A stretch of DNA of 53,617 nucleotides from Gemmatimonadota bacterium (lineage in GTDB: Bacteria > Gemmatimonadota > Gemmatimonadetes > Palauibacterales > KS3-K002), in the NCBI GenBank assembly GCA_039586795.1, contig JBDHJS010000023.1, positions 1 through 53,617 of the forward strand. The letters are read 5' to 3'. Position 1 is the first letter of the stretch; every line of letters starts with the position of its first letter. Made by a program: the position numbers. Shown piece after piece: positions 1 to 15,000 of the stretch.

Positions 1-3000
1 GGTTTCGATGTAGCCGGCGAAGCCTCGTCGGGTATTGAAGCGATTGAGAAGTACAAGGAACTGAAGCCTGACCTGGTCACGATGGATATCGTGATGCCCG
101 ACATGGGTGGTATCGATGCTGTGCGGTCAATCATCGAAGAGGATCCCGACGCGAGAATCCTCATGTGCAGCGCGATGGGGCAGCAGGGGCTGGTGGTGGA
201 AGCGATACAGGCGGGGGCCCGCGACTTCGTGGTCAAACCCTTCCAGCCGTCTAGAGTGCTTGAAGCTGTCCAGCGCTTGATGGGATGACTCAGCAGGAAA
301 AATACGCAGAGCTATTCGCAGCCGAGGCGCGCGAGCATCTTGCAGAGATCAGCCGCGCCTTCGTCGCGCTCGAGAGCGAGCCGGGCGACCGCGACTCGCT
401 AGACGCCATATTCCGTTCTGTACATACGATCAAGGGGATGGCGGCAGCGATGGGCTATGAGGTCGCATCCAGCCTGGCACATAACATCGAGTCCGCCCTG
501 GATGAGCTTCGCAGCGAGCGGCGACAAGCAGATGCTGATGTTGTCGACATGCTTCTGGAGAGCAGCGACAGGCTAGAAGAAGTCGTCATCGCCACCGTCG
601 AGGGAAAGAAGCCGCCAGATTCCAGCAAAGTGATCGAGCGACTGGTGTTGTGGCGGATCGCGGACGATAGTGCCACACAGCCGGCTCCCGAAGCAGAAAA
701 GACATCGGCACGCCGGAAGAAGACGCGCGATGCCAAAGCGGCGCCGCGGCCTGGACCAGAGCGCGCAACTCGGGCGGACACGCGTATACGCGTAGATATT
801 CGACGCCTTGACGCTCTGATGAACCTGATTGGCGAACTGGCGATCGTGCGGGGCCAGCTTCGCGCACTCGCGCAGCAATCCGGAATTGAGGTGTTGCAGG
901 ACACCGTCGATCGGGCGGGCAGCCTGATCCGCGAGATGCAGATGCACGTCGTCGAAAGCCGGATGGTTCCGGTATGGCAGATCTTCGATCGCTTTCCGCG
1001 GGTCGTTCGAGATGCCGCGCGCGCGCTTGGCAAAGAGATCGAGTTCGAGGTAACCGGCAAAGAGCTCGAGCTCGACCGTACTCTGCTCGATCGGATTAGC
1101 GATCCGTTGGTGCACCTGCTTCGCAACGCTGTGGACCATGGAATAGAACCACCAGCTGAGCGCAAGAAGGCGGGCAAGCCGCAGAGCGGTCGAATAGAAT
1201 TAGCGGCGCGCCGCGAGCGGTCACGCGTGGTCATAGAGGTACGGGATGACGGCCGCGGCATAGATCGCGAGGCCGTGATCAAGAAGGCGCGAGAAGCCGG
1301 GGACTCGGAGCACGAAGCCGAGCCGTCAGCTCAGGAGCTGTTTCGGATAATGGCGCGGCCGGGTTTTTCAACCGCGACGCGCGTGACGGAAGTCTCAGGC
1401 CGGGGCGTTGGGCTCGATGTCGTGCACACGTCGATAAGAGGATTGGGCGGCGCGGTTGATCTTCAGACGGAGAAGGGAGTGGGGACGACATTTCGTCTGG
1501 AACTCCCACTGACGCTGGCCATTCTACGCGCGCTGATCGTCGAGGTGGAAGGTCAGGTCTATGCGCTTCCCGCGACATTCACACGAGAAAGCTTCCAGAC
1601 CGAAGAATCAAACGTGGTGGAGGCCCACGGGCGCGAGTGGATAAGCTGGCGCGACCAGTTGCTGCCGCTCACGCGACTGCCGCGACTGTTCGCAAGTGAT
1701 AATGGAGACGGAGTCAACGGTAAGAACAATTCCGTCCACATAGTGGCCCTGGAGTTCGGCGGTGCTCATCTCGCCGTTTCCGTGGATCGCTTCGTGGGAG
1801 AAGAAGAGATAGTCGTAAAGTCATTTAACACACCGCTCGGCGCGGCTCCCGTTTTTTCCGGGGCGACCGTAAGGCCGGACGGGCGGCCAGCTCTGGTGCT
1901 GGATGTCGGCAGTTTCTAGTGCCGATCGAAAATAAGCCACGCGAGCATGGCAGCATGATCGAACTTCAGGCGGAAAGGCGAATGAACGATTCACAGGAGC
2001 TCCGGGACTTAGAGCTTGATGCGCTTAAGGAGGTGGCCAACGTCGGTGCAGGTCACGCGGCGACAGCTTTGAGCCAGCTTACCAATCGCCGCATCATGAT
2101 CAACGTGCCAGAAGTCGAGCTTTGCTCGATTGAGGAAGCGGCATCCTCTGTTGGACAGGGGAATCGAGTGGTTGCTGCCGTGTTGATGCAGGTGCTGGGA
2201 GACCTGACGGGGCGTTGCCTGCTTCTGTTCGAGAAAGACGCGGCGATGAAGCTTGCTGATGTGTTGCTGAGCCGGGAGCCGGGCAGCACCAAGGTGTTCG
2301 GCGAGTTGGAGCAATCATCTGTGAAGGAGACCGCCAACATCCTGACGGGAGCGTACCTGAATGGCCTGTCCGATCTGCTGGGACTGATGCTCATCCCCTC
2401 GGTCCCTAGCTTAGCGGTCGATCTCGCCGGAGCCGTCCTGTCCACGACTTATTTGAACTTCGGCCATGATCGGAGCTTCGTGATCATCATGGACACGCGG
2501 TTCATGTTTGAACCGGATTCCGAGGTTATGACAGGCCATCTTGTCTTGTTGCCGGACTCATCAAGCCTGAGCGTCATCCTGAAGGCGGCCAGAGTCAAAT
2601 AGACGTGTATGGCTAGAACGGTCTACTCTGAGGGCGATCTTCTCGTTCTGCGGGCTCTTGCCAAGCGCATCGACCCGGGGGACGCCGGTGCGTTCAATAA
2701 TTTGGGGGTAGTCTACTATCAGAAAGCCTTGTTTGAGGATGCGATCGAGCAGTTTCGGCGGGCGCTGGCGATCGATCCGAAGATGGAGGTGGCGCGGCGC
2801 AACCTGGAGATCGCGTACCATCAAACCGGCTATTATGACCGCCAGATTGCTGAGCTGATCGGACGCCTACGCCAGAACGAAGATGACGAGGAAGCACGTC
2901 TGAAATTGGCGGAAGCGTATCTCCAGGTCGGCCGGGTGGACGAGGCGATCAGTCAGTATGAGACCCTGATCAAGTCGCGGCCCGGCGAGGTGCAGGTCCT

Positions 3001-12000: not shown

Positions 12001-15000
12001 ACACCAGACGACGTCAAGCGCCGCTGGTTCAAGCTTGATGATGTGTGGCGATTGAAGGAGCCAATTCCTCAACTTGTGGAGTTTCGGCAGCGCGACATCC
12101 TTTCCGGTCGACCTGATTTTGACGCGGACCTGATACTCTGCCGCAATCTTCTGATCTACCTAGACAGGGAAGCACAACGGCGGGTGTTTCAGGTATTCAT
12201 GGATACACTGCGGACGGACGGCTATCTGGTGTTGGGACGCGTAGAGATGCTTCCGTCGGTGTTCAAGAAGAACTTTGAGGTTGTGAACGCGCGAGAGCGT
12301 GTCTACAAGAAGAAATGAAGTATTACGTCTCGCTGGGTGAGCGCCGTGTTGGCAGGGCGGAGGGCATGTTTGCGGTTCTCGGCCTGGGGTCGTGCGTCGT
12401 GATCGTGCTCTATGATCCCGCGAGCTCAGTGGGTGGAATGTCGCATGTGCTTCTTCCGGATCCTTCGTACAACGACAACGCCGCTCGTCGTTGGAGATAT
12501 GCAACCACGGCGGTTCCAGGGCTCCTGGACGAAGTTGTGTCGGCTGGAGGGTCAAAGGCGAACATCACGGCGCGGCTAGTGGGCGGCGCGAGCATGTTCG
12601 GTGAGCTGCTTCCAAAGGGAGAGCCGAATATCGGAGAGCGAAATGTCGAGGCCGCTCGATCGGCGCTGAAGGAAGCGGGCATACCTCTAGTAGGTGAGGA
12701 CGTAGGCGGCGACTACGGTCGATCAGTGTATTTCAAGTTGAGCGACGGCCGACTCCGGGTTAAAGCTCATGGAAGGGAACATGTCGAAGTCTGAGCCCGT
12801 TGGCCAAGCGAGGTCGGTGCTCGTTGTCGATGACAGCGTGTTCATGCGGCGCATGATCTCCGACATGATCGGACGTTTCCCCGGATTCGAGGTCGTGGGG
12901 ACAGCGGCAGACGGAGAGGAAGCGCTGCGGCTGATCGAAGCCCATGATCCAGCTGTCGTCACCCTTGACATCGAAATGCCTCGTCTCGATGGATTTGGCG
13001 TGTTAGAGCGGGTGATGTCATCGACGCCGAAGCCTATCGTGGTTCTCTCCGCATACACCGGCGAAGGAAGCGACGCGACATTGCGAGCGCTGGAACTTGG
13101 TGCCGTCGAGTTTGTAGCCAAGCCTTCCGGGCCGATTTCCTTCGATCTTGCTCGTGTGGAAGGCAGACTCTACGAAGCGCTACAGGCGGCGATTGTCGCG
13201 GACCTGGACGCACTGCTGAAAGAGCGCCGCGGGGGGACGCCGCGGTCTGTAGCTGCAAGCGACACCGGTGAGTTAAAAGTGGTAGCCATCGCTGCGTCCA
13301 CCGGAGGCCCCCGCGCTCTGGCGTTTATCTTGAGTGCTCTTCCCACCAACCTTGGAGCGGCCGTCCTCATCGTCCAACACATGCCACCCGGCTTCACTTC
13401 GACGCTGGCATCGCGTCTCGATGAGATTTGCCCGCTACCGGTGCATGAAGCGAGCGGCGGCGAACCGATTTTGGCGAACCACGTATGGCTAGCACCGGGT
13501 GACTTCCACATGAGAGTCCGGCGAATCGATGGCGAGGTGCGTCTGTCGTTGGATCAGCAGGAGCCGATGTGCGGGACGCGGCCAGCGGCCGACGCATTGT
13601 TCCCGACGGTGGCAGCTGTATTCGGTCAGGGTTCGGTAGGGGTGGTCCTGACGGGGATGGGACGCGATGGCGCAGATGGGCTTGCCGCGATTCGAGCTGC
13701 CAGCGGTCGCACTATCGCTCAGGACGAAGAGAGCAGCGTCGTCTTTGGCATGCCGGGCAAAGCCGTGGAACAGGGTGCGGCGGAACAGGTAGTCGCGCTC
13801 GACAGGATTCCGGAGGCGATCGTCGAATCGCTGAATTCTATCTCATCGCAGTCGCGGAGCGCACGGTGAAGGACCTGGTGACGTTCCGCGTTGGTGGTTC
13901 GAGATACGCGCTACCTGCCGAACTGGTGACAGAGGTTGTTGAGATCGAACCCGTAGCGCACCAGGTGCTGGCCGAGCAGGACAGCCAGGCGCCTGGACTG
14001 ACGCAGATCAGAGGTCGATGGGTTCCGGTGATCGAGTTGGCCGGAACGCTCCCCGATTGTGAGCCCCTGCGTTCCGCTGAAGAGGGCACGGTGCTTTTGG
14101 TACTGGGCCGTGGCGCGAACCAGCTGGGGCTGAAGATCGAGGAGCTAGGCGATGTAGTTCCGGCTGGCGAGGGTCGAACGCCGACGGGGCCCAGCTCCGA
14201 GCTGTTCATCGAGATCAACGGGGACTTGATACGCTACATCGACCCGGCGCTTCTCATCGATTCGCAGGCGAGTTTGCTGGTTGATCAAGGGGGAATGATG
14301 GAGGAGCACCAGACGGTACCCGATGCCAAGAAGGTCGTTGCCTTCAAGGTGTGCGCCGACGAATTCGCGGTAGATGTCATGAGCGTACGCGAGGTTTTGA
14401 AGGTCAGCGACGTGCGCCCGGTCCCCAAGGCGCCGGATTTTGTCGAAGGCGTAGTGGGCGTGAGAGATGCTGTGATTCCTGTCATCGATATGCGCAAGCG
14501 TTTTAGCCTTCCCGAGCGCGATGCCGGGGTGGAAGGGCGGCTCCTGGTTGTGACCACTGGTGATGGCCAGGTCGCTCTTGTGGTTGACGACGTACCCGGG
14601 GTCGTCGAGCTTCCTCTTGACGAGCTGAGTCCAGCTCCCGACTTCTTCAAGGGGCTGGCCGGTCGATACCTGGAGGCGATCGCGCAGTCCGGAGAGAGTC
14701 TTATTATACTTCTGAACCTGGATGAGATTCTTTCCTCGAAGGAGAAGATCGCGCTCAAGAAGATGATCAATGGAGGAAAAGGGTCGACCAGGAAGGCCAA
14801 GCCGGCTTCGGCAAAGCCACGGAAGAAGCGGACCACGCGGCGCACAAAGAAGGACCCAGGTTGAGGAAGGCGCTCTCTGAGGCTACGGGCCAGATCTAGA
14901 CTAATCACGACGCCCCCCGCCGCGCTGCGAATCCTCCGCCGGTCGACGGTCCCGCTGCTTCTCTGCACAGTCTTCGTCGCCGCCGGTTCGACCTCCGTTC

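Follow-up and report, generated by a model that had tools for sequence, protein, structure and literature searches.

A modular chemosensory operon of the Gemmatimonadetes with a DnaA-derived AAA+ protein and its PATAN-TPR neighbour as constant core

Introduction

What would a bacterium without flagella control with an operon in which chemosensory genes enclose an MglA-type GTPase and a relative of the replication initiator DnaA? The question is raised by a locus at the start of the window, the whole stretch of 53,617 nucleotides of a Gemmatimonadota genome that was analysed. The route from a chemosensory signal to an MglA-type switch is only in part resolved, even in Myxococcus, whose genes for it are scattered. 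In the present case a candidate parts list lies in a single operon that is retained across most of a class, some members of which are in culture; natural deletions reveal which of its pieces depend on which.

Gene content of the operon

Fifteen tightly packed genes occupy positions 1-14864 of the plus strand, with overlaps or gaps of no more than 6 nt at the starts used, and the expected domains are present in all of them (Pfam). On contig C42, after the cheW of the operon (G000:C42:65-562, minus strand), come the opening 21 codons of CheY, at which the contig breaks off; the remainder of CheY opens the window (1-288; PF00072). This gives the 16 genes, cut by a contig end, that the survey's finding had described, and the operon is real. 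CheY, 74-90 % identical between families, is followed by the only CheA of the genome (285-1919), with Hpt, dimer, ATPase, and CheW domains and with best NCBIfam matches, below cut-off, to archaeal and Thermotogales models, and by a CheC phosphatase (1919-2602, possibly starting at 1982) with two D/S-xxx-E-xx-N motifs. The far end of the operon encodes CheR (11515-12318), CheD (12315-12794), CheB with receiver and methylesterase domains (12769-13869), and a double-domain CheW (13866-14864), in place of which many relatives have two separate cheW genes.

The presence of CheC and CheD, with their active-site motifs, agrees with the F1 chemosensory class. Two membrane receptors, encoded outside the operon, are 44H receptors by length (155 residues from the HAMP end to the tip, about 22 heptads per arm), not by the class HMM. 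The che genes form an F1-like set that is non-flagellar. No flagellin or FliG is encoded in this 97.8 % complete genome, bearing out the earlier description of a non-flagellated host, and FliG is absent from 58 of the 72 genomes of the class that have CheA; flagellar chemotaxis was therefore rejected. Flagellated relatives mostly have another CheA near the flagellar genes. No match pointed to a toxin, defence, or mobile-element reading, in searches that left PADLOC and PHROGs outside. Four RNA runs gave a few short identical pieces, at a depth of 2-4, in a set of matches that were for the most part distant; being contigs, these were not taken as evidence of transcription.

Between the two groups of che genes, a 906-aa soluble TPR scaffold (2609-5329) is SgmX-like by architecture only; the homologue search returned generic TPR names, the named homologues being Gemmatimonadota TPR proteins. 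There follow PAT1, with DUF4388 (PATAN), winged-helix, and TPR regions (5329-6462), a TPR-roadblock fusion (6443-7249), a stand-alone roadblock protein (7246-7614), and an MglB-like roadblock protein, a putative GAP (7607-8098; PDB MglB, E 8e-12; NF052242 below cut-off). MglA (8101-8742; phmmer E 1.3e-76 to PDB 6HJH) thus has three roadblock partners. It has the features of a Group 1 MglA, namely intact G1 motif, Arg53, Gln82, and NKxD, and a coupled mglB, with R53 kept in 79 of 80 sequences and Q82 in all 80. It is a second paralogue, the canonical dnaX-recR-mglB-mglA locus being also present in the genome, at C96.

The AAA+ protein and PAT2

The AAA+ protein (8726-9904, in an ORF open from 8699) consists of a DnaA-type domain III, an all-helical middle domain, and a C-terminal tail. 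Pfam matches DnaA domain III only (residues 15-169), and neither domain I nor the DNA-binding domain IV was found with Pfam or with TIGR00362, against which the protein scores 245 (cut-off 343.9) in a match that ends near residue 244. With 90.8 against a cut-off of 194.8 for TIGR03420, it does not classify as Hda. Identity to the genome's own DnaA, a separate full-length protein encoded at C68:69996-71468, is 38 % over residues 8-278 and about 45 % for AAA1, the first AAA+ domain, and domain III of Bacillus subtilis DnaA (8BV3) is matched with an rmsd of 1.7 Å and 40 % identity. Walker A and B, sensors I and II, and the arginine finger are all present, and in AAA1 K157 and D214/D215 are kept in 90 out of 90, D248 and R313 in 89, and R264 in 87. 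An ATPase without DnaA domains I and IV, as first reported, is therefore confirmed.

The label 'DNA-binding-less' suits this protein, which lacks domain IV and has a 6-residue deletion in the initiator-specific motif, such that Ile190, which has a ssDNA-binding role in DnaA (PMC8287927), is deleted or replaced. It does not carry over to the tandem relatives, whose second domain (AAA2) keeps an Ile at this position in 68 out of 78 and the equivalents of Arg202 and Lys222 in 76 and 56, respectively; in AAA1 the position is His in 55 out of 90. The tandem form itself is not general, the protein being single in this genome's family and in family f8, two loci of which have degenerate AAA+ motifs. 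For the middle domain Foldseek returned nothing at E 0.001, another fold comparison reached Z 6.3 at best, against generic helical bundles, and an Atlas search yielded no usable match; none of this demonstrates novelty. The protein defines an undescribed DnaA-derived family, which suggests reuse of initiator AAA+ domains outside replication.

The next gene encodes PAT2 (9894-11522), with DUF4388, a winged helix, and a TPR superhelix. Inserted in its DUF4388 domain is an MshEN-type motif (10053-10226, residues 54-111), supported by conservation, by the tandem RLGxxL..L..Q pattern, by NF053729 (54.7 bits, cut-off 38), and by MshE (5HTL, E 7e-7). PAT2 is accordingly a predicted cyclic-di-GMP sensor, and eight GGDEF-motif ORFs are present in the same genome.

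The C-terminal tail of the ATPase (EKxxWxWPxxxxxxxE, 9821-9892) appears to dock in the TPR groove of PAT2. The predicted complex scores 0.85, and the best of three controls 0.00; 116 of 157 solved complexes attain the mark used, as do 2 of 215 mismatches, and the mark is roughly applicable here, where own alignments were used. At least 91 % of contacts agree between model runs, with partner pLDDT of at least 71. In the modelled interface, tail residues 357-389 lie on conserved TPR residues (N325 in 91, N428 in 86, Q459 in 89, K462 in 92, and N463 in 91 of 98 sequences), these interface residues being only modestly more conserved than the remainder of the TPR region (0.68 versus 0.61). The ATPase gene is directly upstream of PAT2 in all 20 loci picked across families and in 79 of the best 80 of 576 loci, the exception having 118 nt upstream. 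The tightest link in the operon is thus that between the ATPase and PAT2, not that between Che and MglA.

Further evidence comes from four loci (G063, G106, G118, and G166; also G172) in which the ATPase is replaced by a mini-ORF encoding a peptide of 60-100 residues that has only the C-terminal tail and one amphipathic helix (EFxxFL; EFxxFLxD at 9479-9523 in the window). This mini-ORF abuts a PAT2 from which exactly the MshEN insert is missing and in which N428, Q459, and N463 are kept. The mini-gene loci form a single clade (support 100/99), therefore the loss of the AAA+ domains together with MshEN was one event. Within the ATPase it is the AAA+ domains that can be dispensed with, and it is predicted, with this gene history behind it, that the protein is chiefly an adaptor.

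Distribution within the class

The DUF4388-TPR marker PAT2 is present in 88 of 201 genomes of the class and is not shown by 113. With a C-terminal query the ATPase was matched in 77 of the 201, all within the MglA genome set, so the previously reported 7 out of 41 was an undercount. A middle-domain query misses family f9, G097, G181, and the mini-gene clade, and co-occurrence was therefore recounted on PAT2; the middle-domain profile matched none of 17 genomes of families f11-f13. PAT2 is present in 71 of the 72 CheA genomes, and among the best 80 of 576 PAT2 loci all those with a named source are from Gemmatimonadota.

Gene order, said to be identical in the survey's finding, is conserved but not identical everywhere: of the 20 loci picked across families, 6 have the full set of 16 gene types. 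The che genes are often lost, and losses of che, roadblock, or mglA genes are independent of the core. Family f6 keeps the ATPase and PAT2 alone (5 out of 5 loci), locus L084 has the Mgl core and no che genes, and G146 keeps CheY, still 86 % identical, and the core without CheA or receptors. The operon is a vertically inherited Gemmatimonadetes locus, modular and not fixed, with the ATPase-PAT2 pair as its constant core. Of the direct tie that had been proposed between chemosensory pathway and MglA, what stands is that the genes of a conserved, non-flagellar CheC/CheD system physically enclose an MglA/MglB module that is itself intact; the tie is read from gene order, and the parts separate in evolution, as these cases illustrate.

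Output of the operon

On balance this F1-like chemosensory operon probably has built into it a control module that organises the pole for type IV pili, an output that we infer with modest confidence. In Synechocystis PilB1 and PilC are both bound by PATAN (10.1101/2021.06.11.447907), and pili are activated by MglA-GTP together with SgmX, a TPR protein (PMC7519303, PMC7668184). There are no pilus genes inside the operon; elsewhere the genome has PilB, two PilT-family ATPases, PilC, PilM, and pilins. At least three PilT-family genes are found in 70 of 88 PAT2 genomes and in 5 of the 113 others, and within f6 at least two in 12 out of 12 with PAT2 and 0 out of 36 without, a trend in copy number that is confounded by kinship; the sister families f1, with the operon, and f2, without it, both have mostly one or two copies. 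Since PilT is near-universal (191 of 201 genomes), pili do not need the operon.

In the proposed mechanism, the two receptors would feed the intact che set, the ATPase tail would hold the PAT2 groove, and the EFxxFL helix is predicted to bind a second partner, as the gene history suggests. Cyclic-di-GMP on MshEN may gate ATP-dependent oligomerisation of the AAA+ domain, which could gather PATAN domains at the base of the pilus, where these would act on PilB/PilC. MglA-GTP, the roadblock proteins, and the large TPR protein would choose the pole, and CheY-P would switch the polar state, by analogy with Frz in Myxococcus. A bolder version is speculative and rather doubtful: that the repurposed DnaA motor is a cyclic-di-GMP-gated, ATP-dependent polymer scaffold, tail-tethered to the PATAN/MshEN sensor, making a switchable polar hub that joins phosphorelay, Ras-like GTPase, and second messenger at the pilus base, and that tandem forms may in addition touch DnaA or ssDNA, which would connect polarity with the replication cycle.

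The M. xanthus Dif system is CheC-bearing and F1-like in make-up. By analogy with it, a non-flagellar F1-type pathway with a cyclic-di-GMP sensor, in a genome with GGDEF-motif ORFs, could have exopolysaccharide, adhesion, or aggregation as its output in place of motility, pili then serving as input or co-target. This is unlikely, as the MglA and PATAN precedents indicate the pilus motor and no polysaccharide genes are at the mapped loci, where the mapping reports matches to the query set only. An improbable alternative would couple replication or the cell cycle to polarity and cyclic-di-GMP, the AAA+ domain co-assembling with DnaA or, like Hda, inactivating it. The conserved arginine finger, the identity to DnaA, and the AAA2 residues retained in tandem forms would fit, but one clade has lost the AAA+ domains while tail and helix persist, f8 is degenerate, AAA2 is absent and the initiator-specific motif deleted here, and PAT2 is not shown by 113 genomes.

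The retained ssDNA-contact residues of AAA2, and pili throughout the class, also suit a tandem protein that handles ssDNA entering via competence pili under chemosensory and cyclic-di-GMP control. This is very improbable: besides the state of the protein in this genome's family, single-PilT genomes, the likelier competence-only ones, are those without the module. The independent losses, and housekeeping neighbours that are equally conserved, might instead mean hitch-hiking by three separate modules, the che genes, the Mgl block, and the ATPase-PAT2 pair, which would have in common an ancestral transcription unit lying between rluD and a gene for a peptidase. Yet nearly every CheA genome has PAT2, the core is flanked on both sides by che genes with overlapping codons, and CheY is little changed in G146, which make mere hitch-hiking quite improbable.

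Comparison with known systems

A literature search, with most subscription papers outside its scope, did not find a description of the operon. A supplementary table of Wuichet and Sogaard-Andersen (2015) lists Gemmatimonas aurantiaca GAU_1409 as 'PATAN>MglA>-PATAN>' (PMC4316618), very likely this locus type; the words 'DnaA' and 'chemotaxis' are absent from the main text, and the locus is there a table row only.

Like the Frz-MglA/MglB/MglC/RomR system of M. xanthus with SgmX, the operon combines a chemosensory pathway, MglA, several roadblock proteins, and a large soluble TPR protein with type IV pili. In M. xanthus, according to PMC4316618, mglA is encoded away from its partners, whereas here they share one operon, which adds an F1-like CheC/CheD set, a second MglA paralogue, two PATAN-TPR proteins, and the DnaA-derived adaptor. 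PATAN in a chemosensory operon is shared with the PatA-type (PATAN-REC) proteins of cyanobacterial Tax/Hmp systems, whose PATAN binds PilB1 and PilC (10.1101/2021.06.11.447907); here PATAN is fused to TPRs and not to a receiver, CheY is separate, and the operon further brings in MglA, roadblock proteins, and an AAA+ partner. F1-class systems, as defined in PMC10746217, have CheC, CheD, and 44H-length receptors in common with this one; they differ in that most carriers here lack the flagellar motor and the receptors lie outside the operon. The MshEN motif of PAT2 matches MshE and the PilB/PilF N-termini, but sits as an insert within a PATAN domain, and its control of an ATPase would be exerted in trans. 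With DnaA and Hda the ATPase shares the initiator-clade AAA+ fold and its motifs; unlike them it has no domain I or IV, has a docking tail and an all-helical middle domain that matches no known fold clearly, is often tandem, and can be reduced to a peptide. What is new here is the predicted docking of the tail in the PAT2 TPR groove and an ATPase that has shrunk to a peptide in one clade.

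Operon composition in the source genome

The survey's finding of an operon joining chemosensory genes, an MglA GTPase and a DnaA-type ATPase is real. From the window start to base 14864, 15 genes lie on one strand, with the stated domains by Pfam, and, with the starts used, neighbouring genes either overlap or are no more than 6 nt apart. The order is cheY, cheA, cheC, a 906-aa TPR protein, a DUF4388-TPR protein (PAT1, 5329..6462), a TPR-roadblock protein, two roadblocks, a small GTPase, the DnaA-type ATPase (8726..9904), a second DUF4388-TPR protein (PAT2, 9894..11522), cheR, cheD, cheB, and a double CheW. 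The end of contig C42 holds the upstream cheW together with the first 21 CheY codons. CheA, CheB, CheC, CheD, and CheR have their catalytic motifs, and none of the proteins encoded by the operon shows a clear membrane segment. Downstream (window 15057-20127) lie a Peptidase MA_2 gene, which is present in nearly all loci, a gene for a TPR protein and, beyond it, the mraZ-rsmH division cluster; in other loci a TPR gene of ~290 aa, absent from the source genome, usually sits between the operon and the peptidase gene.

The source genome (G000) has a single CheA and, outside the operon, two membrane receptors. Both bear HAMP and methylation motifs, and one also has a dCache domain. Because both receptors span 155 residues from HAMP to tip (44H length) and CheC and CheD are present, the che set fits, by sequence, the F1 class as defined in the available text of PMC10746217. 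One receptor gene and, 5′ of it, a co-oriented gene for a periplasmic-binding-protein-like product, its likely ligand partner, occupy G000:C56:3311-6338. The operon MglA keeps G1, Arg53, Gln82, and NKxD across 80 copies. A second, canonical mglB-mglA pair lies behind dnaX-recR (G000:C96:3363-4469; 61 % identity to the operon MglA), with a further roadblock gene at C96:38516-38773.

The DnaA-derived ATPase and its predicted partner

Residues 14-244 of the ATPase are DnaA domain III and, as had been claimed, domains I and IV are absent. The nucleotide-binding and trans-acting residues are all conserved (~90 copies). The initiator-specific motif has a 6-residue deletion in the source genome's family, and the equivalent of DnaA Ile190, reported to bind ssDNA (PMC8287927, in the part available), is mostly replaced in the first AAA+ domain, whereas the second domain of tandem relatives retains it in 68 of 78 cases. 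After domain III comes a confidently predicted, all-helical middle domain, whose matches by features are limited to DnaA-type clusters, mainly in Gemmatimonadota, followed by a C-terminal tail, EKxxWxWPxxxxxxxE. Of 110 loci, 106 have a match to a loose tail pattern just 5′ of PAT2, including one that is evidently spurious; two of the four misses have a divergent tail by eye. This ATPase is one new protein family. Two loci of family f8 (L018 and L019) have a single AAA+ domain that has lost the arginine finger and sensor II, with middle domain and tail intact, and G112:C50:17823-18197 is a second copy of the middle domain.

PAT2 carries an MshEN-type motif within its DUF4388 domain (NF053729 over cut-off; MshE 5HTL match), the key residues being kept in 96-98 of 98 copies. 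For the complex predicted between PAT2 and the ATPase, the score was 0.85 and that of the best control 0.00, with contact agreement of at least 91 % and partner pLDDT of at least 71. In calibration, 116 of 157 solved pairs and 2 of 215 mismatched pairs attained the score mark, figures that apply roughly, the complex having been run with its own alignments. In the model, the tail would lie along the PAT2 TPR asparagines N325, N428, N429, and N463. Asparagine contacts are the usual mode by which TPR grooves hold peptides, so resemblance to solved TPR-peptide complexes may account for part of the score.

Docking gains independent support from five genomes missed by the ATPase search (G063, G106, G118, G166, and G172), where PAT2 is preceded by a mini-ORF of ~60-100 codons encoding only a helix, EFxxFLxD, and the tail. 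Four of their PAT2s were aligned; what these lack is exactly the MshEN stretch (residues 55-108) together with the last two TPRs, and they retain N428, Q459, and N463. As these four form one clade in the PAT2 tree, the AAA+ motor and the c-di-GMP motif were lost together, once; helix and tail were then retained over long branches in two genera. Likewise, family f9 and genome G097 have a shrunken middle domain and keep helix and tail. Judged from these sequences, the DnaA-derived protein appears to act, over evolutionary time, as an adaptor whose motor is optional.

Variation and distribution

Among 20 loci hand-picked across seven families, the full complement of 16 gene types occurs in six. 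CheY and the Mgl core persist in G146 without CheA or a receptor, G075 and G071 have lost cheR/D/B/W, and only ATPase and PAT2 remain in five f6 loci. In a second set, the best-scoring 80 of 576 loci, which may share genomes with the first, L084 has the Mgl core without any che gene. The ATPase adjoins PAT2 in 20/20 loci of the first set and in 79/80 of the second; the ATPase-PAT2 pair is the constant core. The G146 CheY (L004:4726-5178, single-contig genome) is 86 % identical to that of the window. In G075 (99 % complete), where no receptor was found, a CheA without its C-terminal CheW domain is kept beside CheY and CheC (L008:15370-16878) and is possibly receptor-independent. In G171 the operon is broken after mglA.

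Across 201 class genomes, the ATPase C-terminal region is present in 77, PAT2 in 88, CheA in 72, MglA in 115, FliG in 15, and PilT in 191. These tallies take in up to four unpublished genomes (G029, G133, G022, and G018; G029 is also one row in the tree and residue counts), on which no conclusion depends. Of the CheA genomes, 71/72 have PAT2 and 58/72 lack FliG; in several flagellated genomes, the contig with FliG also encodes a second CheA. Since the PAT2 tree groups by family, the locus looks vertically inherited, with losses in families f2 and f4 and in most of f6. The closest named PAT2 relative among the matches listed is Ca. Kutchimonas denitrificans (Gemmatimonadota). Extra strong DUF4388 matches occur in longer frames of 973 and 680 aa (G160:C7:160863-161573 and G095:C293:1737-2453).

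Likely output

The reported absence of FliG from the source genome was borne out, and flagellin was not found there either. Its pilus set comprises PilB, two PilT-family ATPases, PilC, PilM, and six pilin-like motifs, and there are eight GGDEF-motif ORFs. In Synechocystis, PilB1 and PilC are both targets of PATAN binding, and the paper reporting this also draws attention to DUF4388 that carries PilB-like inserts and has MglA/MglB as neighbours (10.1101/2021.06.11.447907). MglA-GTP acts on pili via the TPR protein SgmX (PMC7519303, PMC7668184, PMC11580455). At least three PilT-family genes are present in 70/88 genomes with PAT2 versus 5/113 without, and within f6 at least two in 12/12 versus 0/36. 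This trend is supporting, not decisive, because related genomes are not independent, f1 and f2 differ little in copy number, and pili also occur without the operon. The operon most likely controls pili, a reading held somewhat above even confidence. PilB (G000:C50:34800-36533) has an N-terminal MshEN-like motif with the first Arg replaced, and c-di-GMP sensing may thus have shifted to PAT2.

Relation to known systems

Supplementary data of PMC4316618 list a Gemmatimonas MglA with PATAN genes on both sides; its main text, as far as available, says nothing of DnaA or of genes for chemotaxis, and the accessible parts of PMC9862903 and PMC12448109 add nothing further on the locus. Searches aimed at the operon found no account of it in the literature covered, which largely excludes subscription papers. 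The operon is genuine and class-wide, and as a system it is undescribed. New here are the constant ATPase-PAT2 core, the apparent adaptor with optional motor, and the single joint loss of motor and c-di-GMP motif; as a whole, the system is a new variation on chemosensory-to-polarity coupling and includes one new protein family.
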